A DNA stretch of 32,000 bases from positions 630,001 through 662,000 of the forward strand of contig NC_007517.1 of assembly GCF_000012925.1 (NCBI RefSeq). The letters are read 5' to 3'. The notes under the pieces are model-generated. The model saw only the letters and a list, made by a program, of their open reading frames with translations. It was not told the origin of the DNA and ran no database searches. The position numbers were made by a program, and so were the translations under genes. Position 1 is the stretch's first letter, and the number at the start of each line of letters is the position of its first letter. Shown here in pieces: positions 2-31,202 of the stretch. The DNA comes from Geobacter metallireducens GS-15 (lineage in GTDB: Bacteria; Desulfobacterota; Desulfuromonadia; Geobacterales; Geobacteraceae).

Positions 2-733
2 GCGGCGGCATCAGCGGCCTGTACCGCCATCGACAAGGTTCCCTTTACGGTTCGGAAGCAGGGGGACTACTGTCTCACAAGAGACGTTTCACTGCACGAC
101 GGGGCGGTCGGGATTCTCGTGGAAGCCGATCAGACCGTCATCGACCTGGGGGGGCACCGGCTTCAGGGGACGGGCGGCGAGGGGAGCTACGGCATCCGCT
201 CTGAAAAGGGAGTAACACTCCGCAATGGGACCATCAGCGGCTTCAATATCGGCATCGCCGGCGGGTCCGGTTCGCTCATTGAGAACCTGTGGATCGAGAA
301 GAGCACCCGGACGGGAATCTTGGTGAACGGCGCCGGGAGCGTTGTCCGCAACAACATCGTAACCGATGCACGCGCCGCTTTCGAGGCCTATGGCATCGTG
401 GCGATGGGGGGTAAGAACCGTATCCTCGACAACAGGATCACGGAGATGAAGGGGGCTTCCGGCGGGCGGGGATTCGGGATTCGGGTCTATGCCGCCGGCG
501 GGAACGTCATCGAAGGGAACCAGATCGGCAACGCTTCCTTCATCCCCAACACCTTCGGAATCGTCGTCTCCGGGGCGGAATCCCGTAACAACGCCCTGAA
601 TGCCAACAGCATAACCAACGTGGAAAACGGCATCGTCTATGACCGCGGCGGAAGCGGCACCAACCGCGGCAACCGCACCACCGGTGTCCGCAACCGGTAC
701 GTCGGCGGCACCGACGGGGGCGGGAACGATTAG
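2..733 (+). CDS. Right-handed parallel beta-helix repeat protein (NosD/pectate-lyase-like), C-terminal part; 5' end lies outside the window
   Basis: Frame 2 is open from the window edge (no stop in codons 2..121) to TAG at 731-733. The translation shows short Gly/Asn/Ile-rich turns repeated about every 22 aa (GVTLRNGTISGFNIGI.., SVVRNNIVTD.., NRILDNRITE.., NVIEGNQIGN.., NNALNANSITN..), which is typical of beta-helix proteins. Confidence 0.7.
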   Translation, partial: AAASAACTAIDKVPFTVRKQGDYCLTRDVSLHDGAVGILVEADQTVIDLGGHRLQGTGGEGSYGIRSEKGVTLRNGTISGFNIGIAGGSGSLIENLWIEKSTRTGILVNGAGSVVRNNIVTDARAAFEAYGIVAMGGKNRILDNRITEMKGASGGRGFGIRVYAAGGNVIEGNQIGNASFIPNTFGIVVSGAESRNNALNANSITNVENGIVYDRGGSGTNRGNRTTGVRNRYVGGTDGGGND

Positions 734-814: not shown

Positions 815-2149
815 ATGACGGGTAACGATCTCATGCAACGCCTGGCTTCGCGGCGTGTTTCCCTGACGCTTATCCTGATGCTCCTCTGCATATGCGTCAT
901 CGGCGCATTGGTCCCCCAGAAGTCGACCCTGGAGCCGGAGAGCTATGCCGCATGGGTCGCAGCCGGAGGGGTCCACGATCTCTGGCTGAAGCTCGGATTT
1001 ACCCGCATTTTTTCAACCTGGTATTTTCTCGCGGTCATGATCCTCTTCTTCGCCAGCACCCTCGCTGCGACGATAATACGCGCCCGGGGCCTGCTGAGAC
1101 GGGAGAAGCCGGAGCCGAGCGCCGCAGCCATGGTGGGGGAGCCCTTTTCGACAACGGTTTCCGGCGTACCGCTGGAAAAGTTGAAATTGCGGGTTTCGGG
1201 CTTTTCCTGGCACGAAGGGCTCTGTGCTGACGGCAGATACCTTGCCGGCACACGCTTCGGGATCGCACGGTGGTCCGTCGTGTCGCTCCACCTGTCGTTG
1301 CTGTTGCTCATCCTCGGCGTTCTCGCGAGCCACGCCACCTATTTTCGCGGCTATATGAAGCTGGGAGTGGGGCAGAGTGAACAACTCGACGAATCGGGCT
1401 TTTTCCAGCAGGACAGGGGGATGTTTGCCCCGGCTCTCCCGCAAGGGCTCAAGATCACGCTTCTTTCCTTCGATAACCGGTATCGGGAAGCGGGTTATCT
1501 CCCCGACATTGCGGCGGATTTTCTGCTGGAAGGCGCAGCCGGAGGCCCCCTCAGGACGAGGCTCCTCCGCTCCGGGATGGTATCCTATGGTGGGCTCGAC
1601 CTCTATCTCTCCGTCCGTCGTGGCTTCGGGGTCATCCTCCACACGGTGCGCCGGGACGGTGGGCGGGCATCGGGCTACGTTAATTTCAACTTTCCCGAGG
1701 GGGGGAAAACTCCCCGGGTCCAAGCCGAAATACCCGGTTCCAATGCGCAGGTTGACGTTGAGTTCCTCTCCCGCAACCGCAGGTACGACGACTTGGCCGG
1801 GATTGCAGCACCGGCAATCCGGATGAGATTCATGCGAAACGGAGGCGTCGTTGCCGAGCGCCTCCTTCGTCCCGGTGAGGGAACGGTAGTGGAAGGGATC
1901 AGCTATACGTTCGGGAAGATAGACTACTGGTGCGACATCGCCGCCACGCGTGATCCCGGCATTTATCTCATTTACGCCGGCTTTGCCGCCGCCGCCCTGA
2001 CCCTGGTCCTTTTTGCGTTCTTTCCGACCGCGGAAATCCGGCTTCTGGGGGCAGGGGGGACGGACTCCGTTCATGTCGCTGTCCGGTGCGAGCGGTTCAG
2101 GTCGGTGGCCGAGCGGATCCTCGAACAAATCACGGAGGAAAGAACCTGA
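815..2149 (+). CDS. ccsB: ResB/CcsB (Ccs1)-family cytochrome c biogenesis protein, System II, copy 1
   Basis: 444-aa ORF. The N-terminal ..RRVSLTLILMLLCICVIGALVPQK.. matches the ResB TM1 '..G..IPQ' signature. A second TM (FSTWYFLAVMILFFAS), an H-containing TM (SLHLSLLLLILGV), a large soluble middle region and a C-terminal TM follow. AAAGGAAA RBS about 10 nt upstream. The stop overlaps the start of the next gene (ATGA). Confidence 0.8.
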   Translation: MTGNDLMQRLASRRVSLTLILMLLCICVIGALVPQKSTLEPESYAAWVAAGGVHDLWLKLGFTRIFSTWYFLAVMILFFASTLAATIIRARGLLRREKPEPSAAAMVGEPFSTTVSGVPLEKLKLRVSGFSWHEGLCADGRYLAGTRFGIARWSVVSLHLSLLLLILGVLASHATYFRGYMKLGVGQSEQLDESGFFQQDRGMFAPALPQGLKITLLSFDNRYREAGYLPDIAADFLLEGAAGGPLRTRLLRSGMVSYGGLDLYLSVRRGFGVILHTVRRDGGRASGYVNFNFPEGGKTPRVQAEIPGSNAQVDVEFLSRNRRYDDLAGIAAPAIRMRFMRNGGVVAERLLRPGEGTVVEGISYTFGKIDYWCDIAATRDPGIYLIYAGFAAAALTLVLFAFFPTAEIRLLGAGGTDSVHVAVRCERFRSVAERILEQITEERT

Positions 2150-2958
2150 TGGACGTCATTTTTTTCTGGATAGCGACAACACTTTATGCCCTGTCGGCGG
2201 TGCTGTACCTGATCCACTTCATCTTCGACAAAAAGTGGGGCGAGAAGGGGGCGGCGGCGCTGGCGGCAGGGGGGATCGTGCCCCACGTGGCTGCCGTCGC
2301 CATGCGCTGGGTGCAGGCCGGACACGGTCCCTACATCACCCGTTACGAGGTTTTTTCATCCGATGCGCTCATCGCGGTTGCAGTCTTCCTCGCGGCCGGC
2401 CTTTTGTACCGGAAGATCAGGGTCGCGGGGGCGATCGTCATGAGCGGAGCCTTTCTGATGATGGGATACGGTGCCCTGTCGGTGGATACCAAGGCTGCGG
2501 CGCCGATCACCTTCAAGAGTTGGTGGTTGGTCATCCACATCCTGTTCGGCAAGGTTATCACCGGAGCCATGCTGATTGCGGGGGCGCTTGCCGTCTTCTA
2601 TCTCTTGAAGAGCAAACGGCCCGAACGCTGGCCAAGACTTCCTGACGTGGCCTCGCTCGACGACCTCTCGTACCGCTTTCTGTCACTGGGCTTCTGCGCT
2701 CTGGGGCTGATGATCGTCGCCGGTTCCATCTGGGCCAACAGCGCATGGGGGCGATACTGGGGGTGGGATCCCATCGAAACGTGGTCTCTCATCTCCTGGA
2801 TAACCGTCGGCGCCATACTCCACCTGCGTCGTCTCCACGGGTGGCGTGGCAGAAGGATGGCCTGGCTCACCATTGCGGCACTTCTTCTCGCCATATTCAC
2901 CGCCTTCCTTATCACCATTGTCAGCCCCGGCATTCACAGCAGTTACATGGTCAAATAG
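2149..2958 (+). CDS. ccsA: CcsA/ResC cytochrome c-type biogenesis protein (heme-handling WWD protein), copy 1
   Basis: Trp-rich WWD motif WGRYWGWDPIETWSLISW followed by HLRR, plus a TM His (WWLVIHILFG). The in-frame ATG at 2149 overlaps the ccsB TGA (2147-2149). The track ORF start at 2086 lies inside ccsB and is unlikely to be used. Confidence 0.9.
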   Translation: MDVIFFWIATTLYALSAVLYLIHFIFDKKWGEKGAAALAAGGIVPHVAAVAMRWVQAGHGPYITRYEVFSSDALIAVAVFLAAGLLYRKIRVAGAIVMSGAFLMMGYGALSVDTKAAAPITFKSWWLVIHILFGKVITGAMLIAGALAVFYLLKSKRPERWPRLPDVASLDDLSYRFLSLGFCALGLMIVAGSIWANSAWGRYWGWDPIETWSLISWITVGAILHLRRLHGWRGRRMAWLTIAALLLAIFTAFLITIVSPGIHSSYMVK

Positions 2959-3212
2959 TGTATTCACCCAGCGTTGGCACGTGGGAAGCTTTACAATGTG
3001 CCATCCGATCGTCGGTTGTAAGGGTCGCGGAAAGGTGTGCCACGGCCGTTCGGCAGATGTTTTAAGTTCATAATAGTTGAGTATATTCTTTCTTTTCCCG
3101 CGTCCTCTCCACCGTCAATAACAATTTCTGTTCCTCCCTCATTTCAATATGAAAAATTTATTATATTAATGTTGTTAAATGGTTGTGCACTGGCGCCGCT
3201 TTTCCCTGATAT

Positions 3213-3228
3213 TGGTACCGCTCTTGCT
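3213..3228 (+). promoter_or_regulatory. Candidate sigma-54 (RpoN) -24/-12 promoter for the cytochrome operon
   Basis: TGGTACCGCTCTTGCT compared with the consensus TGGCACG-N4-TTGCW. It matches 10 of 12 defined positions, has exact spacing, and keeps the invariant GG and GC. It sits in the 486-nt intergenic region about 215 nt upstream of the ATG at 3445, just downstream of a tract that is about 30% GC (hand count over 3061-3180). Confidence 0.5.
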
Positions 3229-3444
3229 GTCAGGTAATTGGACGTTACCGCTCCGGCGGTTTATGTGTAGGGTGCTGGAGGTATAACCGTAAGCATCCAA
3301 GCGTGTTAACCTGTGATGGGCTGTAAATGGATTCCAGTCTTTGAGGCCGAATTAACAGTGGTTTGACAGGCTGGTGTCATAATTTTGCTTTTTTTGAACG
3401 TCTGGACGTTGTTGTGCTCATCATGATTTGACGTGGGGGAAGTC

Positions 3445-6054
3445 ATGGGTACGGAGAATAGAACGAAACGAACCTCTGGTGCAGTACCAGTGCTGGTTGC
3501 CTTTGCGGCTTCGATGGCGCTGGTACTCTTCGTTTTGTGCGGTACGACCCCTGTCCACGCTGGAACCATCACCAGCTGTTCCGGCTGTCACGGCATGCCG
3601 CCGGCGGACGCCGCCTTCCGCAACATCTCCACCGGCGGCTTTGCCGGCAATCACGGTACCCATCTCGGCGCTTCCGCCAGTGCCGGCGACTGTACCAGGT
3701 GCCACAATAATTCCGGTTATCTCAACAGCCACCGGGACGGCAAAATTCAGCTGGCGTCCAATATCAATACCTCGCCGGCTCCCGGCGGCGGCCTGTACAA
3801 GGTATCCGGATCGGCAGTCACCTTCTGGAACCAGACGTCCATTCCGGTCCCCGGGTCATGCAGCAACGTCAACTGCCACTTCGAGGCGGCAACTCCCCTG
3901 TGGGGCTCCACGGCGTTCACCTCTCCGGCCGATTGCAATAAATGTCACGGCGCCCCGCCAAGTGGCGGAACATCGGGCGCGGCCGGCAGCCACTCCCGGC
4001 ACGACCAGTACTATGCCGGTGTCGCCAACTGCCAGAAGTGCCATTCAAACAATACGACCTTCCAGCATGCCACCAGCGCCGGGCATCGCAATCTGAACAT
4101 CAGCTTCGCCGCCGCCCCCAACAACGGCAGCGGCGTCTATTCCGGCCCCCTCAATGATTACCTGCCGAGCCAGATCAATGGGTTCGGCACCTGCACCAGC
4201 CTCTACTGCCACAGTAACGGCCAGAAAAGCATGGGCAACTTCTCCACCGTCACCGTACCGACCTGGGGAACCCCCCTGCCGGCCAACTGCACGGGGTGCC
4301 ACAGGTCCAACAACGCCTCCGGCAACGCCATGGCCACCGGCAGCCATAAACGGCACGTGGGTACTGATTCGCAAGGTTATTCAAACAACATAGCCTGTGC
4401 AAAGTGCCATGCCGCCACGGTCAACGGCACCATGGCCATTGCGGACACCACCGTCCACGTCAACGCCAAGGTTAATATCAAGTTCAACAGCCTCACCACT
4501 GCCGTCAACGGCACCTATGGGGGCCAGGCGACCCCCTATGCCAAGGATCCTGGCACCGCTTACGGCCAGTGCAACAATGTCTACTGCCATTCGAACGTCC
4601 AGAACGACGGCGGGGTCGGCATAACCTACCGGCAGCCCACGTGGGGCAATGGGGCGAGCGGCACCTGCGGCACCTGTCACGGCGGCGGCAACCACTTTAT
4701 GGAGGCTGATATTGCGACCGGCAGCCATACCAAGCATCTGTCATCGACAGCGACTCCCTATACCATGGCGACACGCTGCATAGTCTGTCACAACGTCGGC
4801 GGATTGCCGTTCAACGGCAGCTGCAACAATTCGTGCCATAGCGGGCTATCGCGGCACACTGACGGGAAGATAGACCTTGCGTTCCCGTCCAATTTCGGTG
4901 CTACGGCGGCCTACAACGGCACCCCGAGGCCGGGCAACGGCTACAGCACCTGCTCCAACGTCAACTGCCACTACAGCACCACCACCCCGACCTGGGGAAC
5001 GTCGACCCCCATCGGCTGCCTCGGCTGCCACACCCTTGCCGTGCTGCGGGCCAGCGGCGCCCATGCCAAGCATATCAGCGCCACCGCCTCGCCGACCATG
5101 TACAACTACACCGCCAACCGCTCCACGGCGACGGAATACGACTTCGGCTGCTCCAACTGCCATCCTGTCACCGCAACGGGCAATCACTACAATTCGGTCA
5201 TCAACGTGACCCTCAAGAAGGATGAGGCCGGGGTGGGCTCCCTGCGCGCCAAAAACAGTGCCACGGCGGTCGGCGTCAACGTCGCCAACAGCGGCATCAC
5301 CGGCACAACCAAAGTCAGCATCAGGTGCTCGATGGCCTACTGCCACAGCAACGGCAACGCCGCCGGCCTGGTCTACGCCACCACGCCGGACTGGTACGGC
5401 GGCAGCTTCACCGGCGACCGCTGCGCCAACTGCCACGGCAACGCCCCCAACACCACCATTGCCGGTTCCAAGTCCCACTACAACAACCGCTTCCTCGGCT
5501 ACACCAGCAACCCGGGGGGGCACCAGATTGCAATCCATGCCATGGGGATCTACAGCAGCCCGAGCGGCCTGGCCAAGGCGGGCACCGGCAATGACAGCAG
5601 CCACGGCAATGCCGCCACATCAACAACCATCGGCTGCAATATCTGCCACTACCTGACGGTCACCACCGCCCGCAACGATGACAACTTTGTCTGCAAAACC
5701 TGCCACTATGCCGGCAATACCGTGGGCGCCCTGGCCGGAAACCCGGCCGCCATCGCCGACCGGTCGAAGCACGTCAACGGAACGGCCGATGTGGCGTTCC
5801 AGCCGGTTACCGTGCTTTCCAAGGCGCAGATGCGGCAGATCTACTTCACGTCATACAGCGGCACCTTCAAGCGCAACGGCGTGTACAAGACCTCCGGCGC
5901 GTACGACTCCGCCAAGGCAGCGCTCAACACGGCAACCATGTGGGACGGCGGCAGCAAGACCTGCTCCAATGTCGCCTGCCATAACAGCCAGAGCGTGAAA
6001 TGGACCGATAATGACGGCGCGACAACGTGTGTCAATTGCCATAACGCCATGTAA
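3445..6054 (+). CDS. Secreted multiheme c-type cytochrome with repeated CxxxxCH...CxxCH units (Geobacter-type domain)
   Basis: Signal peptide (..VPVLVAFAASMALVLFVLCGTTPVHA|GT). Manual count gives 14 CxxCH, 6 CX4CH (CSNVNCH, CTSLYCH, CNNVYCH, CSNVNCH, CSMAYCH, CSNVACH) and 1 CX3CH (CNNSCH). The ATG at 3445 is preceded by GGGGGAAG; a GTG at 3433 is an alternative start. Confidence 0.9.
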   Translation: MGTENRTKRTSGAVPVLVAFAASMALVLFVLCGTTPVHAGTITSCSGCHGMPPADAAFRNISTGGFAGNHGTHLGASASAGDCTRCHNNSGYLNSHRDGKIQLASNINTSPAPGGGLYKVSGSAVTFWNQTSIPVPGSCSNVNCHFEAATPLWGSTAFTSPADCNKCHGAPPSGGTSGAAGSHSRHDQYYAGVANCQKCHSNNTTFQHATSAGHRNLNISFAAAPNNGSGVYSGPLNDYLPSQINGFGTCTSLYCHSNGQKSMGNFSTVTVPTWGTPLPANCTGCHRSNNASGNAMATGSHKRHVGTDSQGYSNNIACAKCHAATVNGTMAIADTTVHVNAKVNIKFNSLTTAVNGTYGGQATPYAKDPGTAYGQCNNVYCHSNVQNDGGVGITYRQPTWGNGASGTCGTCHGGGNHFMEADIATGSHTKHLSSTATPYTMATRCIVCHNVGGLPFNGSCNNSCHSGLSRHTDGKIDLAFPSNFGATAAYNGTPRPGNGYSTCSNVNCHYSTTTPTWGTSTPIGCLGCHTLAVLRASGAHAKHISATASPTMYNYTANRSTATEYDFGCSNCHPVTATGNHYNSVINVTLKKDEAGVGSLRAKNSATAVGVNVANSGITGTTKVSIRCSMAYCHSNGNAAGLVYATTPDWYGGSFTGDRCANCHGNAPNTTIAGSKSHYNNRFLGYTSNPGGHQIAIHAMGIYSSPSGLAKAGTGNDSSHGNAATSTTIGCNICHYLTVTTARNDDNFVCKTCHYAGNTVGALAGNPAAIADRSKHVNGTADVAFQPVTVLSKAQMRQIYFTSYSGTFKRNGVYKTSGAYDSAKAALNTATMWDGGSKTCSNVACHNSQSVKWTDNDGATTCVNCHNAM

Positions 6055-6151
6055 CCGGTAAGGTATGCGCTTCGTACAGGGGGGAGGTGTTTTTGCCCCT
6101 GTACGTCGTAACAAAGTAACGGACTTTCCAGCACTGAACGAGGGAACTTAT

Positions 6152-9100
6152 ATGGGAACGACAATCGCCAGGCAGATCAGGAGCATGGGGCTGCGGACTA
6201 AAATCGGCATCATTGTGATGCTGGTCGTGGGCTGTTTCCTGTATCAGATCATGTTCAAGCCGATGATTGGCGATACAGCCACCCAGACCTATTATTTCAC
6301 CACTGATTCCACATCGGTGAACCTCGGCGCCGATGGCAGCACCAGCACCGCGGCGTCGCTCGGCGGCAAAATATCCATGAAGGTCGGTGTCTATGCCTTC
6401 TCCCGCAGTGTCAGCGCCGCGTCCAATACCTCCGAACAGAGGATGATCAGCGCCTATGGGCCGGTCTATGCCGCCAAGCAGACCATTAACGCGCCTGCCG
6501 TCACGATCGGCGTGAGGGACCGCAACGGCACCGCAAATGCCATTTACTGGAAGGCCTACGTCTACGCCTATAACCCGGCGGTGGCCCCCGGCACCGGCAA
6601 CCCCACGGCTACCGGTGCCGCCAATAACGCGAGATTGCTCTGGACATCGGACGAGATGGAGGCCCATCCCTCGGTGCAGACGCCGCTGGACATGACCTTC
6701 ACCAATCCTGCACTGCAGACCATAGATGCCGGACAGCGGATCAAGGTGGTCATCACCGCCCGCCTGGCAAGTACCGCCTCGTCGGCCCGCCTCTTCTGGG
6801 GGGGCGGAAGCAACTATTCGTTCTTTACCGTCACCGAAGCCCCCTATGTGGCTGATTCGGTTACCGTCTCAAACCTGGCCGATTACTATGCCGGCGGTCT
6901 CACCTCCGTCACCCAGGGGGACACCAATGTTCCCATGCTTAGATTCGACCTGTACACCAACGTGGCCGGGGGGGTCAACTGGTCGGGCGGGCTTCTGGAT
7001 AAGATCGGCACCAATACCAGCGTCCTCAACCCCCTTCTGCCGGTGGACGAACCGGGAGACGTCTCCTTTTCGATCTACCGGGATGCCGATAATGACGGCG
7101 TCTTCGAACCCACCGACACCCTGATCGGCGGACCATACAATTTCAGCCAGTTGACCAAACAGGGGTATTCGTTGCCGACTCCGGAAGCACTTACCGCCAC
7201 GCCCCGGCGCTATTTCATCACTTACACCATTCGCAAGAACGCGACCTATAACACCACTGTCGGCGCCCGCATTGTGGATGGCAGTTATTTCACCGTCGAC
7301 GCCGCGGCGACGAACGGCGTGCGAAATGTGACCAGCACGTCGTCCTCAACGCCCCTCATCCAGTATGGGGGCACCCCGGTCGTCAAGAACTACGCGGCGG
7401 ACTGGGATGCCGGCACGTCACTGACGAACATCGCCGAAACCGGCGGGCCGGGCTCCACAACCTCCACCTGTATTACCAGAACCACGGCAGGGTCGGCATT
7501 CCCGCTGGTCGGCCTGCTCAACTACCCCAACCACTCTTGTGCCAGTGTGGCGGGGCAGAACTACAGCAACACCAGCGGCAGCACCCAGCCGGATTTCGTC
7601 AGGCTCTATTTCAGCGGGGACGGCTACCACTCCGATATGCTGTCCATCAAGGGGCGCAGTTTTACCTACCGGCTCTATACCCCGTCAGGCGGCGGCACGG
7701 TCACCCTGCAGATGTTCTACGTCACCAGCGGGGGCGTGCGGGTTAATGCCCCGATTGCATCGACCTACAAATCCACCGGTACTCTCAGCCAGACCATTAC
7801 CACCTCCCTGTCCGGTCAGGATTTTTCCAATGTCCCCCTTGGCGCCCGCCTCGGCATCCAGATCGGCGTCACCGCCAATGCGCAGATCGGCCTCGGCGGC
7901 GCGGTCGGCGCCCAACTGCAGGTGGAGGAAACGGCGGCCCTGAATGAAAACGTCGATGTGGGCGACGGTTTCCCCAGTGTCAATGCCAACGTCTATGCGG
8001 GCGACACCAGCAAGGTGATCGATTCGTTCACCTTGAGCGCTTCCAAGGCAAAGACCGTCTCTTCGATTTCGATCAAGGGCAACCCCCTGTTCAACAGCAC
8101 AAATATCAAAAATGTCTGGATTTATCAGGACAACTCGACCGGCGGCATGCTTGGGGCCCTTGACGGCACCGACACCCTGATCGGGTCCACCTCCGTAATC
8201 ACCGGCAACGTCGCGACGGTTTCGGTCGGCAGCCTGGCCATCGACAACAAGACCAAGCGATTCCTGGTGGTCGTCGATATCGGCGACACCCCCAACACCA
8301 ACGTAATCCTGAACGCTCTGGTCAGTGACCTGGCGGTTGTCACTTCCGGCACCATCGGCGAGAACAGCGACAGTTCGTCGGCGAATCTGACGATCCTGCC
8401 GACCACGACGGTGAGCGGCGGCACTGCCGAGCCTCCCGGCGTGATCGTTCCTTCCGGCGCCGGCGCCACCAAGCTGGATGCGTTCAATCTTGCCACCAAC
8501 GGCGGGGTCAACGACACGTTCTCCAGCGTCACGGTCACGCTTTCGACGACCAGCACCCTGCCCGCGGGCAAGGTCATCTCCGACTACGTTGCGCGGCTTG
8601 ATATCATCAAGGCTGACGGCACTTCCTTCGGGCACCTGACTTCTCCCACCCAGGTCAATAACTGGCAGGTCACGACCACCGGCCTGGCCGCCACCACCAC
8701 GCCCACCGATTATTACGTGGCCGTTACTCCCAAGGCGGGCCAGGGGATTACCTACGACGTCAAGGCCCAGGTTGTCTCGGTGGTCCACTCCAGGACGACC
8801 AACCGGCTGCTGCTGAGCGACCCGTCCAGCGCAACGGTCATCATGGACCAGCAGCCGCCGACCGACCCGACCCTGACTGTCGCCACCGGCACCTATCACA
8901 ATGATATTGACCGCGCCGAGATCAACCTGAACTGGACCACCGCGACCGATACCAGCGGGAGCGCGGTCAGCTACGTTGTCGTGCGTGGCCTGGGGAATGC
9001 GCCGCCGCCACGCAATTGCACGGTGGACAACGTAAAGACCTTCCCGGTTTACTCCGGCACGGGCACATCACTTATCGACAAAAACCTGGATGAAGGCATT

Positions 9101-12100
9101 TCGTACGGCTACCGCGCCTGTGCGGTGGACTCGGTCAACAACGTCAGCGTGGGAACCGCCGGCAGCGCCATCGCCAGTATCAAGAACAGATGTACGGAGC
9201 TTCCCTCACTTGAGATCAATCCCAATGCCTCATACATCAAGGCCGGCAATACGCTGGGCCTGGATGTCGCCATCACCAGCAACGACACGGGCGTCTGTGC
9301 GGCAACCACCTACACGCTCTCGATAGTGGGCACCGACATCGACGACAGCAACTACACCGTCTCCACATTCAGCGGCAACAACTTCATAATCCCGACCATG
9401 GGGTCGCAGTATACGAAGCTGAACATTACCGCGAAGCCCGGCGCGGTTCAGGGGGCGGTCAAGACCTTCCAGGTGAAGGTCGCCAAGAGCTCCGGCGGAG
9501 AAACCCTGCACGCGGACCCGGTCTATGTCACGGTCAACAAATATGGCACCATGATGCACAGCAGTCTGCAACTGGGCACCACCAAGTACGGTATCTGGGG
9601 GAAGAATTACGACTGCGCCACCTGCCATTCCCCCACCGCCACCAATATCAAGCAGGTCAAAAACAGCATCGCCACCCCGACCGGTAACCGGCCGGTCGTG
9701 TTCAATATTCTCTCCACCGCTTCCAGTGCCAATGTGGCTGGTGTTTTCGGCAATGACCACAGAAGCGGGACAGCCACCACCAATGTGTGCGAAGTCTGCC
9801 ACCACAATGCGCGTTTCCACCAGTACAGCTCGTCGAAGGTGACCTGGAAGGACCATAACAACAACGAAGACTGCATGAAGTGCCACTCGCACAAGCTCGG
9901 TTTCAAGACGGTGGCGCAGGCGGGGTCGTGTACCGACTGCCACGGCTATCCCCCCACCATCAAGGAGCAGCTGGTGGTGCCGACGACCAACGTGCTCTCC
10001 TCGTATGCAACCAATGCCGGCTCCCATGGCAAGCACAACGACCGCGGCCTCAAGTGCCAGGCCTGCCACAGCAACGGCAACCACCTGGTCACCGCCGTAC
10101 CGGACAAAAACATCAATATGGGGTTCAAGGTCAACGGGACCAGCTTCCCCGGTTGGTTCGGCCAATACACCACCGGCATAATGCGTTCGCTGACGCCCCG
10201 TAACGGCTATACCTTTGCGACCGCCCCGGGCACGACGGTGCAGCAGGCACCCGGCACCATAATCAACTGCAATGTCTACTGCCACGGCTGGGACGGCAAT
10301 GGCGGCTACAATACCGATCCGGCCTGGACCGGCATCAGCCAGGTCGGCTGCGGCTCATGCCATGCCGCCACCAACGACCAGCCCCCCACCTCCGGCAGCC
10401 ACCACAAGCATGCCAGCAATGAACCCGGTTTCGGCAACGGCATTGCCTGCAGCAAGTGCCACGGTTTCCGCAATTACTCCACCAGCTCGGCCCACATCAA
10501 CGGCAATGTGGAATGGGATCTCTCCACGCTGCCTCCCGGAACCTTCGGGCTGGCCCTTTACAGGGGCGTGGACAAGGGGAACACCGGCGCTCCGGCCCCC
10601 ACGCCGCCGGGCAGTTACGGTTCCTGCTCCAACCTTTACTGCCACAGCAATGTCCAGAGCAACAACGGCACCGGTCCCCCGACGTCCTATTCCACCCCGA
10701 CCTGGGGGGGGACGACCACCTGCAACAGTTGTCACCAGGCGCAGCCGAATGTGACCGGCGGGCATCCGCAGCATGCCGGCGCCGGCGTGACGGGCTTTGA
10801 TTGCCGCATCTGCCATGGAAACGGCGGTGACGCCAACCCGCTCAACCATGCCAACGACTACATAAACTTCCAGTTCGGCGGCCTTGCCGAGAACACGCAC
10901 TATTCCTACAGCTCGGCCAAGGTGCCCGGCTCCGCCTCCTATGGCACCTGCTACAACGGCAACTGCCACGGCTTGCGCCGTCCCAAGACCGGCCCGACCG
11001 CGCTGACCTGGGGCCCGGCCAATGACGCTATCCCGCTTTGCGACAAGTGCCACACTACGGATCCATCCCTCAAAAATGGCTTCTACAGCACCATGGGCCC
11101 CAACGGGACCACCTCGAACACGGACCCGTACGTTGGCGCCCACTTCCAGCATATCACCTCGATGCCGTTCAAGCTGTCGTCCCAGTACGATTGCTCCGAA
11201 TGCCACAACAAGCCGACCGGCCCCTACACTCCCGGCCATATCGACTCGCAGCTGCCGGCCGAGCTGACTTTCGGCGCAACCGCATCGAGCGGCGCGGTCC
11301 TGACCGGTTACACCAGCGCCCAGCACCAGCCCGGCTACAACTACGGTGCCCACCAGTGCAGCAATATCTGGTGCCACGGCTCCGGCATGGACTCCGTCGA
11401 GGGGACCGGCCTCTACGGTTCCGCCGTGAGCGACGGAGCCACCCCCAATGCCAGCCGGATCGCCTCGCCGGTCTGGAATGCACCGTTCCTGAACGGTACC
11501 ACCGCCGACTGCAACAAGTGTCACGCATCACCGCCGCCGGCACCGCTCCCCGGATACAATCACTGGGACGATGACAACAGCCGCCCCTACCAGGCCAACC
11601 AGTGCATCAATTGCCACAAGCATGTCAATGCGGCCGGCAACGGCTTCACCAAGCCGGAAATCCACGCCAACGGCGTTGTCGACAGCTGTCTGACCTGTCA
11701 CGGCCTCCCGCCGACCGACAACAGCATGACCAACCCGCCGATTAATGCCCTGAGTGCCGGCATGACCGGCGCGCACCAGGGGCATTTCCTGAACCCGAAT
11801 ATCGGCAAGCGCTGCACTTTCTGCCACTACAACAATTCCGGCGACATGCCCAGCTACAAGCTGGAGATCGGTTTCAACGCCTTTGGCGGCAAGGTCCGCC
11901 GCGGAACGTTCTACGGCTACTCCACCCTGACCAACAGCTATTCCCAGCCGATTGTCTACTTCGCGACCATCACCAGCACCACCGTGCGGCGGACCACGAA
12001 CACGGCCAAGCTCAATACCTGTGAGAACGTGTACTGCCACGGTGGCGGCTCGGGCGCGGCCCTGCCACCATTGGGGGGCGGCAGCAACACCAAGCCGGAC

Positions 12101-14803
12101 TGGGAGCTGGGCTATACCGAGGCCACCTGCGGCAGCTGCCACGGCGTGACCGGCGAAACCTACCGGACCAGGGGGTCCCATGGCGCCCATGTGGGCACGC
12201 TCTTTGGCGAGCCGAAACTGGCCTGCTCCAACTGCCACGGCGTCAAGGAGAACAACTACCACGTGAACGGCCAAGTGGAGTGGGAGTTCTACACCTCCGC
12301 CAAGCGGATGAACCAGATTGCGGTCAACGACAGCTTTAAAGACAGCCTCGGCAATGTTGTCGTTCCCGGCTACAAAGCCGCCGGCGCCTCGTCCTTTGCG
12401 GCCAAAGGCGGCACCGGCAACCTGGCGCCCAGCGCCGCGTACGGCACCTGCCAGGTCTACTGCCACAGCGACGTTTACGATCACCAATTCAAGGCGATCA
12501 CCTGGGGTAGCGGCGCCACCACCTGCAACTCCTGCCACCGGGACCAGACCTCGGCCGGCAGGTACACCGGCGCGCACCAGAAACATACCGCCAGTTCGGC
12601 CAACGGAGGCTACGGCATCGACTGCGTCATGTGCCACTACGGTTCCGGCGCCGGCAACCCGCTCCATGTGAACGGCACGGTTGACATCATCTTCAACTCG
12701 TCAGTGGTCGGTCCCAATGGCGTGTATGCACCCGGCGCCACCGAAGGGACCGGTACCTGCAAGAATATCCTCTGCCACGTTTCCGACGCAACCACCGGTC
12801 CGGCCTGGAACGGCGGATCTGCCAGCGGCAGCTATGCCACTGGCACCAACAAGCCGACCTGCATCGGCTGCCACAGCGGCGAGGTCGGCGGCCGCACCGC
12901 GGTTATCCCGCAGTTTGCCGGCGCGTCGCACCACGTCCAGGGTGTAACCATGAGCGCCACCTACTGCTACCCGTGCCATATGGAGGCAAACGCCGACGGC
13001 ACCGCCAATGCCACCTACCATGACCGGACCACCGGCAAGTCGGTTGATCTGGTGCTCTATGGCAACGGCACGCGCGGCACGGTCTTCACCAGGTACACGG
13101 CCGCGGGAAGCGCTACCCGCAAGCGGACGGAATACGCCAAGATCAACAACGTCTGCATCGGCTGCCACAGCACCAAGAACAATGCCACAACGCCCTTCAG
13201 CGCCAGCGGCGATACCAGGACACCCAAGACCTATGCCTGGGACAACAGCAGCATCTTCAACCGGTACAGTTCCACCGCCACCACGCTGTGGGGCAAGGTC
13301 ACCGGCAACGACACGGTGAAGAAGGGGCTTAACAAGGCCTTCTCCGCCCATGGCAATGCCAGCGGCAACCAGCGCGGCTGGGCGTTCGGCTCCTACACGG
13401 GCGGCCCGAAACACAGCAACACCAGCGGCGCCGTCAACAATGTGCTCTGCTTCGACTGCCACAACTCCCACGGCACCGTGGCCAGCGGCATCATGACCAG
13501 CTACTCCAGCGCCACGGGCCGCTACAGCGGCGGCATGCTCAAGACCACCGTCCAGGGGGTCGGCGGCTACAACTCCACCTATGCGCCGGTGGCAGGCGGC
13601 GATTCGGCCGCGCCCAACAGGAACGCCTACAACACGGGTGCGTCCCTCTGCTTCGACTGCCACAACAACAAGACGTCCAATACCTCCATGCCGTGGGGCT
13701 ACAATGACACCTTCGGCTCCAACCAGCCCATCTACGGCTTCCATGACAAGCCGTACTTCGGCAACTACTCCACCTTTGCCATGACGGTCACCTATCCGTA
13801 CAAGGCCAGCAACCCTGGCAACAAGGGGGGCCACTACGGCCCGTCGTCACCGCTGACCACTGCCGTCACCCAGCGGACGTTCGCGAACGGCATCAAGGAC
13901 AATCCGTACTCGGCCGGGGTTTCCTCGCCCATCAACGGCCTCTGTACGCCGTGCCACGACCCCCATGGCGTCAGCAAGAACACGACCTATGTGAGCGACC
14001 GCAACTACGGCGTGCCGCTCCTCAAGGGGACCTGGGTCACCTCCCCCTACCGGCAGGATTCGGCACCGCGGAACACCAACGAAGCCCGGGGCGGCAGTAC
14101 CCATTCATCGTCCTATGTGCCCATTACCGTCGGCAGCACGCCCCGGTACTTCATCGACCAGAACAGCATGCAGGCGGGAACGGTGGGCGAACCGACGACC
14201 GCCCGGTCCTGGACGTTCACCACTTCCGCCGCGACACTGCAGACCACGGCCGATACCCAGTTCGCCGGGCTCTGCACCGGCTGCCACAACAAGTCGGTGC
14301 TCAACAACACGGCGGCGGTGACCGGTGCCCCCGGTTCGACCGGAAGCTGGAAAGCCATGACCCGGATCCACAACACCGTCGATGGCTGGGCACTCACAAC
14401 GGGCAGCGGCGGCAACGTGAGCAACAAAGTGCATGCCTTCACCTGCTCCAAGTGCCACACGCCCCACAACGCCCGGCTACCACGGCTCATGGTGACCAAC
14501 TGCCTCGATGCCAAACATCGCGGCGGGGTGGCTGCCGGCGGGAATCCGGTGGAGTACTCGAAATGGTATCAGAGCGGGGCCGGCAAGGGACGGTTCCCTG
14601 TAGGCGGCGGCGGGTTCAAGTCCCGTGGCTCGGCGATCAACCCGGGGACCTGGTTCTTCGGCAAGTCCCAGAGCACGGTCCAGAACGCGGCGCCGGCACT
14701 GACCCTGACCACCCAGACCCAGTGCCACAACACGGCAACAGCCGGTGGCATAACCTACACCAACTACACGACGCAGCACTGGAACAACAAAACACCGTGG
14801 TAG
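6152..14803 (+). CDS. Giant (2,883 aa) putative lipoprotein: adhesin-like beta-rich N-terminal region fused to a 34-site multiheme c-type cytochrome
   Basis: Single uninterrupted ORF. The ATG at 6152 has a GAGGGAA RBS 5 nt upstream. Lipobox LVVG-C has its Cys codon at 6233-6235. Up to the first heme motif (CATCH at 9614-9628) there are no heme-binding motifs and only a few isolated Cys; this part is T/S/N/G-rich and includes an FN3-like segment (about 8849-9185). After that I count 27 CxxCH, 5 CX4CH and 2 CX3CH. Confidence 0.9.
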   Translation: MGTTIARQIRSMGLRTKIGIIVMLVVGCFLYQIMFKPMIGDTATQTYYFTTDSTSVNLGADGSTSTAASLGGKISMKVGVYAFSRSVSAASNTSEQRMISAYGPVYAAKQTINAPAVTIGVRDRNGTANAIYWKAYVYAYNPAVAPGTGNPTATGAANNARLLWTSDEMEAHPSVQTPLDMTFTNPALQTIDAGQRIKVVITARLASTASSARLFWGGGSNYSFFTVTEAPYVADSVTVSNLADYYAGGLTSVTQGDTNVPMLRFDLYTNVAGGVNWSGGLLDKIGTNTSVLNPLLPVDEPGDVSFSIYRDADNDGVFEPTDTLIGGPYNFSQLTKQGYSLPTPEALTATPRRYFITYTIRKNATYNTTVGARIVDGSYFTVDAAATNGVRNVTSTSSSTPLIQYGGTPVVKNYAADWDAGTSLTNIAETGGPGSTTSTCITRTTAGSAFPLVGLLNYPNHSCASVAGQNYSNTSGSTQPDFVRLYFSGDGYHSDMLSIKGRSFTYRLYTPSGGGTVTLQMFYVTSGGVRVNAPIASTYKSTGTLSQTITTSLSGQDFSNVPLGARLGIQIGVTANAQIGLGGAVGAQLQVEETAALNENVDVGDGFPSVNANVYAGDTSKVIDSFTLSASKAKTVSSISIKGNPLFNSTNIKNVWIYQDNSTGGMLGALDGTDTLIGSTSVITGNVATVSVGSLAIDNKTKRFLVVVDIGDTPNTNVILNALVSDLAVVTSGTIGENSDSSSANLTILPTTTVSGGTAEPPGVIVPSGAGATKLDAFNLATNGGVNDTFSSVTVTLSTTSTLPAGKVISDYVARLDIIKADGTSFGHLTSPTQVNNWQVTTTGLAATTTPTDYYVAVTPKAGQGITYDVKAQVVSVVHSRTTNRLLLSDPSSATVIMDQQPPTDPTLTVATGTYHNDIDRAEINLNWTTATDTSGSAVSYVVVRGLGNAPPPRNCTVDNVKTFPVYSGTGTSLIDKNLDEGISYGYRACAVDSVNNVSVGTAGSAIASIKNRCTELPSLEINPNASYIKAGNTLGLDVAITSNDTGVCAATTYTLSIVGTDIDDSNYTVSTFSGNNFIIPTMGSQYTKLNITAKPGAVQGAVKTFQVKVAKSSGGETLHADPVYVTVNKYGTMMHSSLQLGTTKYGIWGKNYDCATCHSPTATNIKQVKNSIATPTGNRPVVFNILSTASSANVAGVFGNDHRSGTATTNVCEVCHHNARFHQYSSSKVTWKDHNNNEDCMKCHSHKLGFKTVAQAGSCTDCHGYPPTIKEQLVVPTTNVLSSYATNAGSHGKHNDRGLKCQACHSNGNHLVTAVPDKNINMGFKVNGTSFPGWFGQYTTGIMRSLTPRNGYTFATAPGTTVQQAPGTIINCNVYCHGWDGNGGYNTDPAWTGISQVGCGSCHAATNDQPPTSGSHHKHASNEPGFGNGIACSKCHGFRNYSTSSAHINGNVEWDLSTLPPGTFGLALYRGVDKGNTGAPAPTPPGSYGSCSNLYCHSNVQSNNGTGPPTSYSTPTWGGTTTCNSCHQAQPNVTGGHPQHAGAGVTGFDCRICHGNGGDANPLNHANDYINFQFGGLAENTHYSYSSAKVPGSASYGTCYNGNCHGLRRPKTGPTALTWGPANDAIPLCDKCHTTDPSLKNGFYSTMGPNGTTSNTDPYVGAHFQHITSMPFKLSSQYDCSECHNKPTGPYTPGHIDSQLPAELTFGATASSGAVLTGYTSAQHQPGYNYGAHQCSNIWCHGSGMDSVEGTGLYGSAVSDGATPNASRIASPVWNAPFLNGTTADCNKCHASPPPAPLPGYNHWDDDNSRPYQANQCINCHKHVNAAGNGFTKPEIHANGVVDSCLTCHGLPPTDNSMTNPPINALSAGMTGAHQGHFLNPNIGKRCTFCHYNNSGDMPSYKLEIGFNAFGGKVRRGTFYGYSTLTNSYSQPIVYFATITSTTVRRTTNTAKLNTCENVYCHGGGSGAALPPLGGGSNTKPDWELGYTEATCGSCHGVTGETYRTRGSHGAHVGTLFGEPKLACSNCHGVKENNYHVNGQVEWEFYTSAKRMNQIAVNDSFKDSLGNVVVPGYKAAGASSFAAKGGTGNLAPSAAYGTCQVYCHSDVYDHQFKAITWGSGATTCNSCHRDQTSAGRYTGAHQKHTASSANGGYGIDCVMCHYGSGAGNPLHVNGTVDIIFNSSVVGPNGVYAPGATEGTGTCKNILCHVSDATTGPAWNGGSASGSYATGTNKPTCIGCHSGEVGGRTAVIPQFAGASHHVQGVTMSATYCYPCHMEANADGTANATYHDRTTGKSVDLVLYGNGTRGTVFTRYTAAGSATRKRTEYAKINNVCIGCHSTKNNATTPFSASGDTRTPKTYAWDNSSIFNRYSSTATTLWGKVTGNDTVKKGLNKAFSAHGNASGNQRGWAFGSYTGGPKHSNTSGAVNNVLCFDCHNSHGTVASGIMTSYSSATGRYSGGMLKTTVQGVGGYNSTYAPVAGGDSAAPNRNAYNTGASLCFDCHNNKTSNTSMPWGYNDTFGSNQPIYGFHDKPYFGNYSTFAMTVTYPYKASNPGNKGGHYGPSSPLTTAVTQRTFANGIKDNPYSAGVSSPINGLCTPCHDPHGVSKNTTYVSDRNYGVPLLKGTWVTSPYRQDSAPRNTNEARGGSTHSSSYVPITVGSTPRYFIDQNSMQAGTVGEPTTARSWTFTTSAATLQTTADTQFAGLCTGCHNKSVLNNTAAVTGAPGSTGSWKAMTRIHNTVDGWALTTGSGGNVSNKVHAFTCSKCHTPHNARLPRLMVTNCLDAKHRGGVAAGGNPVEYSKWYQSGAGKGRFPVGGGGFKSRGSAINPGTWFFGKSQSTVQNAAPALTLTTQTQCHNTATAGGITYTNYTTQHWNNKTPW
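9614..12778 (+). repeat. Protein-level array of about 7 degenerate heme-binding units (CxxCH .. HxxH .. CxxCH .. H-x-N-G .. CX3-4CH .. W-G) inside the giant gene
   Basis: The motif order recurs through this segment, for example CGSCH..GSHHKH..CSKCH..HINGNVEW..CSNLYCHSN..TPTWG, then CNSCH..GGHPQH..CRICH..CYNGNCH, and so on. The repeat is visible in the protein only; the DNA copies are diverged. Confidence 0.7.
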
Positions 14804-14937: not shown

Positions 14938-14961
14938 GGCGGAGACCGCAAGGGGAGACAG

Positions 14962-14995
14962 AGGTGGGGCCTGTTCATGGTCCCACCTTTTGTCA
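14962..14995 (+). terminator. Rho-independent terminator closing the cytochrome operon
   Basis: AGGTGGGGCC (14962-14971), 7-nt loop TGTTCAT, then GGTCCCACCT (14979-14988). This is a 10-bp stem with one G.U pair, followed by TTTGTCATTT. Confidence 0.7.
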
Positions 14996-15132: not shown

Positions 15133-16167
15133 ATGCTGAACAAATGTTTGTTGCTGACCGGTGCCCTGATTGCCGTGCTGACCGCCCCCCTGGCCGCTCC
15201 GGCCTACGAATACGACCAGGAGCAGACCCGGAAGCTGATCGAGAACATGGTCAGGGACCTCGGCGGGCATGACGGCCTGCGCGCGAACAGCGGTAAAGTC
15301 ATGCGCTGCGTCCATGGCGGCACGAAAAAGGTGACCATCGTTCAAAACGGTGCGCTGACGACCTACAACGGGGTGTACAGCAACTGCCGCGAAAATGATT
15401 CCATCAGGGACGGCATTTACGACATCGCCCTCGAAGGAAATGAAGTCACCGTCAGTTCCTCAAAACGCTCCATCAACGGTGAACTGTTCGATGCCGCCAT
15501 GGGGGGTGACGCGAAAGCCGTCAAAAGATTGGTCAAGGCCAAGGCCGATGTCAATTATACGGAAAGCATCAAGAAAAGCGGCGGCGGTCACATCGACGAG
15601 TGGACGCCGCTCATGTCGGCTGTGGCCTCGGGAAGCCTGGATTCCGTGAAGCAGCTGGTCACCGCGGGGGCCTGGGTCAACTACATGAACAGCATGGCCG
15701 TGAACGCGCTCTGGATCGCCGCCAATAAGGGCGATGTCGCCATCGTTAAATATCTCCTGAAGTCGGGCGCTTATGTCAATAACCGGAACTTCGAGGATGT
15801 CACGCCGCTCATGGCGGCTTCCATGAACGGGCATGGGGAGGTGGTTAAAGCCCTGATCGCCGCCCGGGCAAAGCTCGATTACGTCCACAGCGGGGGTGAT
15901 ACCGCCCTGATGTTCGCCCTGGCAGGCAGGCACACGGCTGTGGCGCGGCTCCTGCTGGCTGCCGGCGCTGATGTGAACGTGAGGAACCGCGACGGACTCA
16001 CGGCCCTGCACATCGCCGTGTCGGAAGGGAATCTGGAGATGGTGCGCGGGCTTCTGAAACGTAAGGCCGATGTGTCGGCCACAATGGACAGCGGCAAGAA
16101 CGCGCTGGATATAGCCCGAGCCAGGGGAAATGCCGCCATCGTGGAACTGCTGGAAAAGGGACGATAA
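15133..16167 (+). CDS. Secreted (periplasmic) ankyrin-repeat protein
   Basis: Sec-type signal peptide MLNKCLLLTGALIAVLTAPLAAPA|YE. After a 110-aa N-terminal domain there are about 7 tandem 33-aa ankyrin repeats (..TPLMSAVASGSLDSVKQLVTAGAWVN.., ..TPLMAASMNGHGEVVKALIAARAKLD.., ..TALHIAVSEGNLEMVRGLLKRKADVS..). GGAG lies 7 nt upstream of the ATG. Confidence 0.9.
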   Translation: MLNKCLLLTGALIAVLTAPLAAPAYEYDQEQTRKLIENMVRDLGGHDGLRANSGKVMRCVHGGTKKVTIVQNGALTTYNGVYSNCRENDSIRDGIYDIALEGNEVTVSSSKRSINGELFDAAMGGDAKAVKRLVKAKADVNYTESIKKSGGGHIDEWTPLMSAVASGSLDSVKQLVTAGAWVNYMNSMAVNALWIAANKGDVAIVKYLLKSGAYVNNRNFEDVTPLMAASMNGHGEVVKALIAARAKLDYVHSGGDTALMFALAGRHTAVARLLLAAGADVNVRNRDGLTALHIAVSEGNLEMVRGLLKRKADVSATMDSGKNALDIARARGNAAIVELLEKGR

Positions 16168-16168
16168 C

Positions 16169-18682: not shown

Positions 18683-18684
18683 AC

Positions 18685-25613: not shown

Positions 25614-25691
25614 GATGCTTGTGACGATGATACGTGGTGCCGGATGGCGATGCGATGAGCCCTGTTATTTATCCTTGGCGGATTTCGAATC

Positions 25692-31140: not shown

Positions 31141-31185
31141 CGCCGGTTGACCCGGGGGCGGTACGAATCAACCGGCGATTTTTTC
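31141..31185 (+). terminator. Terminator-like hairpin between the lipoprotein gene and ccsA copy 2
   Basis: CGCCGGTTGA (31141-31150), a 17-nt loop, then TCAACCGGCG (31168-31177). This is a perfect 10-bp stem followed by ATTTTTTC. Confidence 0.6.
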
Positions 31186-31202
31186 AGAGAGGTATGCGTT
31201 TC

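Follow-up and report, generated by a model that had tools for sequence, protein, structure and literature searches.

The 32,000-nucleotide stretch of Geobacter metallireducens GS-15 DNA analysed here (contig NC_007517.1, positions 630,001 to 662,000; referred to below as the window) encodes two ResB/CcsA pairs, which, judged from their sequences, are genuine System II cytochrome c synthase pairs with the WWD motif and all four haem-ligand histidines intact. In Geobacter species the c-type cytochromes number about a hundred, some of them carrying over 30 haems, and the two pairs belong to a supercluster of about 45 kb encoding giant outer-surface multihaem cytochromes (Gmet_0571-0601). The explanation tentatively preferred here, although it is put somewhat below an even chance, is that such accessory pairs would act on one class of substrate, the very long cytochromes with many haems whose genes surround them, helped by module-specific proteins. 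The layout and the idea of dedication are already known: they have been in print since 2009 for these very genes, when each pair was proposed to be dedicated to the cytochromes nearby (Aklujkar et al., 2009; PMC2700814), and no later experimental test of that proposal was found in a literature search. Added here are the linkage of such pairs to large cytochromes across phyla, the observation that this linkage does not track CX4CH haem sites, and the recognition of a type of accessory synthase (that of the second pair) that goes with a lipoprotein and often with a BchE-like enzyme. The association of the lipoprotein and the BchE-like enzyme with ResB/CcsA was not found described in the literature searched.

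The pairs in the window are regarded as accessory because the housekeeping pair lies elsewhere, is essential in transposon sequencing (Tn-seq) and has higher transcript values. G. metallireducens and G. sulfurreducens each have four ResB genes, every one of which adjoins a ResC/HemX-like gene and genes for multihaem cytochromes, and each has a further, orphan ResC gene among haem-biosynthesis genes (Aklujkar et al., 2009; PMC2700814); this count of four pairs and an orphan is taken from that paper and not from a genome scan of our own. The same paper gives GSU2891-2890 as the orthologs of Gmet_0592 to Gmet_0594 and describes Gmet_0572-0573 and Gmet_0578-0579 as lineage-specific expansions. On the evidence of published Tn-seq and transcript data, the general (housekeeping) enzyme is the ppcA-adjacent pair, Gmet_2901-2900 (GSU0613-0614). 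In the Tn-seq data of G. sulfurreducens, GSU0613-0614 are essentially free of insertions (2 and 5 reads) and stand on the essential list, and Choi et al. also name them essential; insertions are tolerated in the accessory genes GSU0704 (21313 reads) and GSU0705 (13601 reads). In co-culture transcriptomes of G. metallireducens, Gmet_2901 has values of 9.4-11.0 and Gmet_2900 of 8.3-10.8, against 5.3-5.6 for Gmet_0579 (CcsA1), 6.6-7.1 for Gmet_0594 (CcsA2) and 5.3-7.7 for Gmet_0573, so that the housekeeping values lie about 2-5 units above the accessory ones. An earlier note, made from the letters of the window, had considered that these might be the only ccsBA genes of the genome and hence housekeeping genes themselves. 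This is not the case, since a third CcsA is found by sequence and four pairs are known from the literature, and a housekeeping pair has been identified elsewhere.

The comparison on which the linkage rests covers 14 distinct genomic contexts of ResB/CcsA relatives. Relatives of the first pair of the window (pair 1) are represented at 87% identity (loci L089/L090), 72% (L091), 49% (L092/L093) and 45% (L104 and L105), those of the second (pair 2) at 54-78% identity (L009, L010, L094-L097 and L106/L107), and two distant soil contigs (L099 and L100) were included. The relatives of the two pairs are from Geobacter, Geotalea, Desulfobulbaceae and Nitrospirae, with one contig of Deltaproteobacteria type and one labelled Planctomycetota. 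In every adequately flanked locus the pair adjoins at least one cytochrome gene for which 7-32 haem sites are predicted, and in most there are several cytochromes of 800-2000 amino acids (aa), which supports a lasting association of such pairs with large multihaem cytochromes. The partner cytochrome families differ between related loci. The earlier note had suggested that one or both pairs might be specialised for CX4CH/CX3CH sites and might co-occur with cytochromes that repeat them. Large multihaem cytochromes do stand beside the pairs, but CX4CH sites are present in only seven of the 14 contexts, being absent around L091, L092/L093, L104, L105, L010, L097 and L099/L100, and the specialisation is therefore not supported. 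The absences include relatives of pair 1 at 72%, 49% and 45% identity, whose flanking cytochromes have zero CX4CH sites. The cytochrome nearest downstream of pair 2 also has zero CX4CH (23-27 CXXCH sites, 23 in the readable part). In a Nitrospirae contig (L096, JACRMS010000004.1, 3735-8498), two ResB-CcsA pairs stand in tandem with a lipoprotein gene between them, flanked by a cytochrome with 30 sites and another with 25 CXXCH and 7 CX4CH sites, and then by a BchE-like gene; duplication of accessory pairs is thus not confined to Geobacter.

The two synthase pairs

All four synthase genes match the expected Pfam families far beyond chance, in agreement with the earlier note, which had placed ResB/CcsA pairs at these positions (here and below, features of the window lie on the plus strand). 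Pair 1 consists of resB1 (ccsB-type, 444 aa, Gmet_0578; 815-2149), which matches PF05140 (E = 4.3e-23, 82 bits, cutoff 24.6) over only the N-terminal half of the model, and ccsA1 (resC-type, 269 aa, Gmet_0579; 2149-2958), which matches PF01578 (E = 1e-29, 104 bits, cutoff 29.9). As subunits of an accessory System II synthase, ResB1 would act in haem export and apocytochrome handling, and CcsA1 would carry the WWD domain. The WWD motif of CcsA1 reads WGRYWGWDPIETWSLISW in the window translation, and the pattern WGxxWxWDxxE is present in it as WGRYWGWDPIETW, which lines up with the WWD segment in the solved structures of CcsBA, 7S9Y and 25VK. Alignment to these two structures also assigns the haem-ligand histidines of CcsA1, namely P-His1 as H130 (in WLVIH), TM-His2 as H225 (in ILHLR) and P-His2 as H263 (in GIHS). 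The residue numbering of the CcsBA structure is that of the 7S9Y paper. For ResB1, no chain was matched when it was used as a single query against PDB sequences, and a profile of 13 ResB-like sequences (consensus ...LLHLG...) was needed; this profile aligns the segment around H159, which is among only six columns invariant across the 13 proteins, to LLLHASF, the TM-His1 helix of 7S9Y, and H159 is accordingly assigned as TM-His1.

The resB1 and ccsA1 genes overlap by one base (TGATG at 2147-2151) with a ribosome-binding site, GGAGGAAAG, just 5' of the overlap, and by this arrangement ccsA1 is evidently coupled to resB1 in translation. An alternative start of ccsA1 at GTG 2086, giving a longer open reading frame (ORF), was rejected because public gene calls, the ribosome-binding site and the TGATG overlap favour ATG 2149. 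The ratio of nonsynonymous to synonymous substitution (dN/dS) is 0.17 for ResB1 against an ortholog at 76% identity and 0.06 for CcsA1 against its ortholog. A Geobacter grbiciae protein at NCBI matches CcsA1 with 100% identity, and relatives of CcsA1 at 70% identity or more form six clusters only in a database of 5.8 billion proteins. A metagenome scan with the ResB1-family profile gave only six distant matches (24-28% identity), so that the lineage of pair 1 is thinly sampled.

Where the earlier note had described a second divergent pair, both of its genes are found, although as a trio with a lipoprotein gene and not as a bare pair: resB2 (439 aa, Gmet_0592, the counterpart of GSU2891; 29273-30592; PF05140, E = 4.3e-22, 79 bits, cutoff 24.6), a lipoprotein gene of 172 aa (Gmet_0593, GSU0703 family; 30621-31139) and ccsA2 (Gmet_0594, the counterpart of GSU2890; 31203->32000; PF01578, E = 1.3e-32, 114 bits, cutoff 29.9). 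The full CcsA2 has 275 aa (11931-12758 in locus L005, which reads beyond the window), the last 10 codons falling past the window end. Its WWD motif reads WGRFWGWDPIETWSLITW in the window translation and contains the pattern WGxxWxWDxxE as WGRFWGWDPIETW. Sequence contexts matching those of CcsA1 assign P-His1 to H136, TM-His2 to H232 and P-His2 to H270, and a matching FLLHLG context assigns TM-His1 of ResB2 to H148; the WWD motif and its flanking histidines are thus kept in both CcsA proteins, as had been noticed earlier. ResB2 has a dN/dS of 0.25 against its ortholog, and its orthologs at 38-59% identity occur in loci of Geobacter, Geotalea, Nitrospirae and Desulfobulbaceae. CcsA2 is 78% identical to a protein of the G. 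anodireducens/sulfurreducens type, and proteins of the CcsA2 type are common, at 56-96% identity, in genomes of Geobacter, Geotalea, Desulfuromonadales, Desulfobulbaceae and Nitrospirae and in Planctomycetota-labelled genomes.

The 172-aa lipoprotein has no match in Pfam or NCBIfam. Its AlphaFold2 model (mean predicted local distance difference test score 80.7, with a core above 90) is an NTF2-like cone, for which the best Foldseek matches are the intermembrane-space domain of ARC6/PARC6 and the C-terminal domain of Tim44 (E = 2e-7). Homologs adjoin ResB/CcsA in L001 (which reads upstream of the window), L009, L010, L091, L096, L097, L105 and L107, and those beside ResB/CcsA are spread over G. 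metallireducens (twice), Nitrospirae, Desulfobulbaceae and other contigs. From this recurrence the NTF2-like lipoprotein looks like the conserved third gene of accessory System II modules of the pair-2 type. Between the lipoprotein gene and ccsA2, a 10-bp GC-rich hairpin (31141-31186, -20.6 kcal/mol) is followed by TTTTTT; in the pair-2 operon it might serve as an internal attenuator or affect mRNA stability.

In both pairs resB and ccsA are separate ORFs and not a fused CcsBA gene; ccsA adjoins resB directly in pair 1, and only the lipoprotein gene splits pair 2. Neither resA nor ccdA, the thiol-reduction genes, was found beside either pair within the window. The two CcsA proteins share 37% identity and the two ResB proteins 22%, while CcsA2 is 63% identical to CcsA3, the third CcsA encoded upstream; by these figures pair 1 and pair 2 are different lineages. 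Both pairs fall within the ResB and CcsA families but diverge from the canonical TIGR03144 "CcsB" equivalog of NCBIfam, CcsA1 scoring 161.2 bits and the window-truncated CcsA2 136.9 bits against a cutoff of 187.6. The pairs are under purifying selection (dN/dS 0.06-0.25). The family matches, the intact ligand residues and these dN/dS values together make both look like working synthases.

Cytochrome genes and transcription units

The gene order of the window equals, gene for gene from Gmet_0577 (partial) to Gmet_0594, that of Table S5 of Aklujkar et al. (2009; PMC2700814), which lists 0578 as ResB, 0579 as ResC, 0580 as a cytochrome, 0581 as OmcN-like, 0582 as an ankyrin protein, 0583 as spermine-synthase-like, then 0584, 0585 (glycosyltransferase family 9, GT9), 0586 and 0587 (radical S-adenosylmethionine, SAM, proteins), 0588, 0589 (GT2), 0590 and 0591, and finally 0592 as ResB, 0593 as hypothetical and 0594 as ResC. 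The last 12.7 kb of the window are identical to a contig of a Logan assembly. The first 12 kb are base-for-base identical to another Logan assembly contig and to contig AGJM01000005.1 of GCA_000243475.2, which we take to be G. metallireducens RCH3.

Two cytochrome genes follow pair 1. The first (Gmet_0580; 3445-6054) encodes a multihaem cytochrome of 869 aa (TIGR01904, 190 bits; PF09698) with 21 haem sites (14 CXXCH, one CX3CH and six CX4CH), and the second (Gmet_0581; 6065-14803) a giant OmcN-like multihaem cytochrome of 2912 aa (TIGR01904 match) with 34 (27 CXXCH, two CX3CH and five CX4CH), which is 58% identical to the G. sulfurreducens-type OmcN in L094. The motif counts of 21 and 34 reproduce the published site numbers (Aklujkar et al., 2009; PMC2700814). 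In Gmet_0580, 42 of the 43 cysteines lie within CX2-4CH motifs, the remaining one being in the signal-peptide region (VLFVLCG), and a common form, C-x-(N/S/M)-(V/L/A)-x-C-H, is seen in all six CX4CH sites; for both reasons the CX4CH sites are very probably genuine haem sites.

The spacer between ccsA1 and the first cytochrome gene (2959-3444) is about 485 bp long and AT-rich. It holds a -24/-12 element of the sigma-54 type, TGGTACCGCTCTTGCT (3213-3228), some 217 nt upstream of the cytochrome start codon, which is a candidate for the own promoter of the cytochrome operon; it is a consensus match only, of a pattern found twice in the window against 0.08 expected from shuffles. A sigma-54 activator gene occurs in the same cluster as the pair-1 relative of L091. 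After the giant cytochrome gene, a consensus scan gave a terminator-like hairpin (14960-14990) with a 12-bp stem and a T-rich tail, which folds at -26 kcal/mol (z = -2.2) and is the likely end of the cytochrome transcription unit. Consensus and folding thus suggest that the two cytochrome genes form a transcription unit of their own. No riboswitch or other RNA family was found in an Rfam search of the whole window, so that there is no recognisable cyclic-dinucleotide riboswitch upstream of the cytochrome genes.

On its 5' side, pair 1 is preceded by a gene for a secreted beta-helix (NosD-like) protein of 262 aa (Gmet_0577), of which the window holds the 3' part (119-733; the called gene, 9131-9919 in L001, corresponds to window -55..733). 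Its stop lies 81 bp before resB1, and it is the conserved upstream neighbour of pair 1: in the ortholog loci at 87% identity (L089/L090), where the order is cytochrome, cytochrome, beta-helix protein, ResB and CcsA, the orthologs occupy the same position before ResB-CcsA and carry PF05048/PF13229. In L089 a resolvase gene (9161-9706, minus strand) and unrelated genes follow ccsA1 where the window has the two cytochrome genes, a junction that hints at rearrangement or mobile DNA. The 81-bp gap on the 5' side, the spacer with its putative promoter on the 3' side, the gene order of the orthologs and the resolvase of L089 suggest that pair 1 closes the upstream cytochrome operon and does not head the downstream one. 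The upstream operon encodes equivalents of Gmet_0575 (18 CXXCH and 8 CX4CH sites) and Gmet_0576 (13 CXXCH), and CcsA3 is encoded together with a lipoprotein about 9 kb upstream of position 815 (L001 1-1262). Pair 2 lies 14.5 kb and eleven genes downstream of the window cytochromes and is followed, past the window end, by a LuxE-like gene, a 119-aa membrane ORF, a B12/radical SAM gene and the further cytochrome without CX4CH mentioned above. The statement of the earlier note that pair 1 stands immediately upstream of the cytochrome operon is right in that the cytochrome gene is the next gene, but a spacer with a putative promoter intervenes. Its picture of two pairs bracketing a cytochrome locus is an artefact of the window ends, given CcsA3 on one side and the eleven intervening genes on the other.

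Candidate partners and competing explanations

The eleven genes between the window cytochromes and pair 2 were considered as mere spacer, a reading that was rejected because several of them have counterparts in similar positions in distant loci (mostly at 22-29% identity). After the giant cytochrome come a signal-peptide ankyrin-repeat protein and an 850-aa fused membrane/spermidine-synthase-like protein (15133-18682); the former is 62% identical to its G. sulfurreducens-type counterpart beside OmcN. A membrane protein with C-terminal tetratricopeptide repeats (TPR; Gmet_0584; 18673-20325; TPR Pfam matches) has a homolog (29% identity over 505 aa) between the resB-lipoprotein genes and ccsA in L091, and is a candidate apocytochrome-handling or modification factor. 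The second membrane/TPR protein (Gmet_0588; 23772-25613) matches PF23914, TPR_CcmH_CycH (46 bits, cutoff 42), and weakly NrfG, and its homolog in L097 lies two genes upstream of ResB in the order TPR, B12-radical SAM, ResB. The two TPR proteins may be apocytochrome chaperones or glycosyltransferase-like modifiers. A GT9 heptosyltransferase-like gene, two radical SAM/SPASM genes and a GT2 gene (all within 20373-26372, between the cytochromes and pair 2) have a similar set directly 3' of ccsA in L097, at 25-27% identity, and may form a cytochrome or envelope modification system.

Beyond the window, 1.9 kb downstream of ccsA2, lies the gene of a BchE-like B12-binding radical SAM enzyme (Gmet_0597; L005 14620-16125). 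It matches TIGR02026 with 399 bits, short of the equivalog cutoff of 481, in an alignment that spans model positions 1-449 of 497. Genes of this kind adjoin ResB/CcsA at 61-87% identity in six other loci (L010, L094, L095, L096, L097 and L105, the last of which has a CcsA of the CcsA1 type), and the enzyme is better conserved across loci than the synthase subunits; no paper discussing a link of this enzyme to ResB/CcsA was found in the literature search. The 119-aa His-rich membrane ORF (L005 14050-14409, also beyond the window), with a weak CopD-like match, recurs after ccsA2-type genes at 49-79% identity in Geobacter, Geotalea and Deltaproteobacteria-type loci, and as a weaker match (30% identity) in Planctomycetota-labelled contigs. 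Circumstantial as they are, these recurrences hint at accessory synthases that act as part of a larger maturation module. Its proposed parts are ResB, CcsA, the NTF2-like lipoprotein, the His-rich membrane protein and the BchE-like enzyme; genes for TPR membrane proteins, glycosyltransferases and SPASM radical SAM enzymes are often close by. In its boldest form, which is rather unlikely, the pair-2 type would be a cross-phylum module for maturation of giant cytochromes that does what housekeeping System II cannot, by chaperoning very long apocytochromes or by handling a modified haem; the latter is considered because a tetrapyrrole is the substrate of the characterised family nearest to the radical SAM enzyme.

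If the accessory pairs serve the long cytochromes around them, ResB and CcsA would together export reduced haem through the membrane. Haem would enter at TM-His1/TM-His2, move to the periplasmic WWD site, be held there between P-His1 and P-His2, and be ligated to the reduced Cys-Xn-Cys-His of the unfolded, Sec-exported apocytochrome, probably with module-specific help from the NTF2-like lipoprotein and the TPR membrane proteins; recognition of one motif such as CX4CH by the pairs is not favoured. This chemistry is that established for CcsBA, and it would be possible in both pairs because all residues required for it are present. We infer, beyond this, that the pairs mature the neighbouring cytochromes and that they do something the housekeeping pair cannot. 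Several points weigh against this preferred explanation. Insertions in GSU0704 and GSU0705 had no fitness defect under the conditions of the Tn-seq study, and the housekeeping pair, too, has cytochrome genes as neighbours, namely ppcA and the genes of a 10-11-haem and an 8-haem cytochrome (PMC2700814). With about 90 cytochrome genes in the organism, adjacency alone is weak evidence of dedication, and many of the compared loci share ancestry and thus are not independent observations. Cotranscription of the window cytochromes with either pair is doubtful, given their apparent own promoter and terminator. For the accessory pairs of Geobacter, no report of a deletion strain, a haem stain or haem-peptide data was found in the literature search.

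The pairs might instead be simply capacity boosters, with the same specificity as the housekeeping synthase, giving extra haem export and ligation for cytochromes of 20-34 sites and making no discrimination between substrates. This is somewhat unlikely. It agrees with the canonical WWD motif and four histidines, with the mostly ordinary CXXCH sites of the neighbouring cytochromes and with the tolerance of insertions, and dosage would predict several pairs per cluster, as are seen in G. metallireducens (three) and in L096 (two in tandem). Accessory transcripts far below those of the housekeeping pair, however, leave little bulk capacity under those conditions, and the low identities between the pairs (22% for ResB and 37% for CcsA), which mark old lineages kept separately across phyla with their own partners, fit functional divergence better. 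That the pairs no longer have a role and are redundant remnants of a duplication of the cluster or of horizontal transfer is the least probable of the explanations weighed. The description of two pairs as lineage-specific expansions (Aklujkar et al., 2009; PMC2700814), the resolvase gene abutting the pair-1 ortholog in L089 and the few close relatives of pair 1 (at least 70% identity) would agree with it, but the genes are transcribed, their catalytic residues, translational coupling and low dN/dS have been kept, and synteny is conserved across phyla.

Two further explanations, each improbable, attach the pairs to a special chemistry. By analogy with NrfI and CcsA1 of Wolinella, they might be lyases dedicated to the CX4CH/CX3CH sites of TIGR01904-type repeats: the CX4CH sites of Gmet_0580 are very probably real, cytochromes on either side of pair 1 carry CX4CH (8 sites upstream in Gmet_0575, 6 and 5 downstream), half of the related contexts have them, and the Wolinella precedent exists. 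The other half of the related modules, including the pair-1 relatives at 72%, 49% and 45% identity and the pair-2 relatives of L010 and L097, flank cytochromes without CX4CH, as does pair 2 on its downstream side. As the earlier note had pointed out, the CX4CH sites of Desulfovibrio cytochrome c3 are not known to need a dedicated lyase, which also counts against this explanation. In the other, no more credible, a pair-2-type synthase would join with the BchE-like enzyme and the His-rich membrane protein to deliver or attach a modified haem, or the cytochrome would be modified afterwards. The recurrence of the BchE-like enzyme beside ResB/CcsA at identities above those of the synthase subunits, and of a membrane ORF of 117-119 aa, speaks for such a module. 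Against it stand the TIGR02026 score under the BchE cutoff, the many substrates of the B12-radical SAM family, the literature search, in which no unusual haem was found reported, and the facts that pair 1 has no BchE-like neighbour and that the enzyme of pair 2 lies outside the window.

Relation to characterised systems

A known case of several System II enzymes in one genome is that of Wolinella succinogenes, which has three isoenzymes, NrfI (for CXXCK), CcsA1 (for the CX15CH site of MccA) and CcsA2 (for general CXXCH sites). As in Wolinella, the Geobacter genome encodes several synthases, one general and the others encoded beside cytochromes, with the WWD motif and the histidine pairs conserved. 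The Wolinella enzymes, however, are fused CcsBA proteins, whereas the subunits here are encoded by separate genes; their specificities have been proven by deletion, whereas those of the Geobacter pairs are hypothetical; and the substrates here would be mostly CXXCH cytochromes, with no consistent unusual motif in the related clusters. CcsA1 of G. metallireducens shares its WWD domain, P-His1, TM-His2 and P-His2 with the CcsBA of Helicobacter hepaticus (PDB 7S9Y/7S9Z) and with the CcsBA of 25VK, and the ResB family profile aligns to 7S9Y in the TM-His1 helix and in the first part of the periplasmic domain. Outside this core the similarity to 7S9Y and 25VK is low, and the chains are separate and shorter (444 and 269 aa, compared with 828-942 aa). 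Family, domain order and resB-resC gene order are those of Bacillus subtilis ResBC and TIGR03144, although both CcsA copies score below the cutoff of the canonical equivalog. Anammox bacteria, a different lineage, are likewise cytochrome-rich, and their genomes are described as encoding duplicated CcsA-CcsB complexes (Ferousi et al., 2013; PMC4222556); no linkage to giant-cytochrome clusters, lipoprotein or BchE-like partner was met in that account, although no search aimed at these was made.

The value of these observations lies in pointing to an open experiment on a published hypothesis for the same genes, and not in a discovery. The linkage, which follows giant cytochromes and not CX4CH sites, narrows what such an experiment should measure. 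If accessory synthases are indeed needed for giant outer-surface cytochromes, they would offer a handle for heterologous production of these proteins, and the Wolinella rule of one lyase per special substrate would extend to a whole class of substrates.

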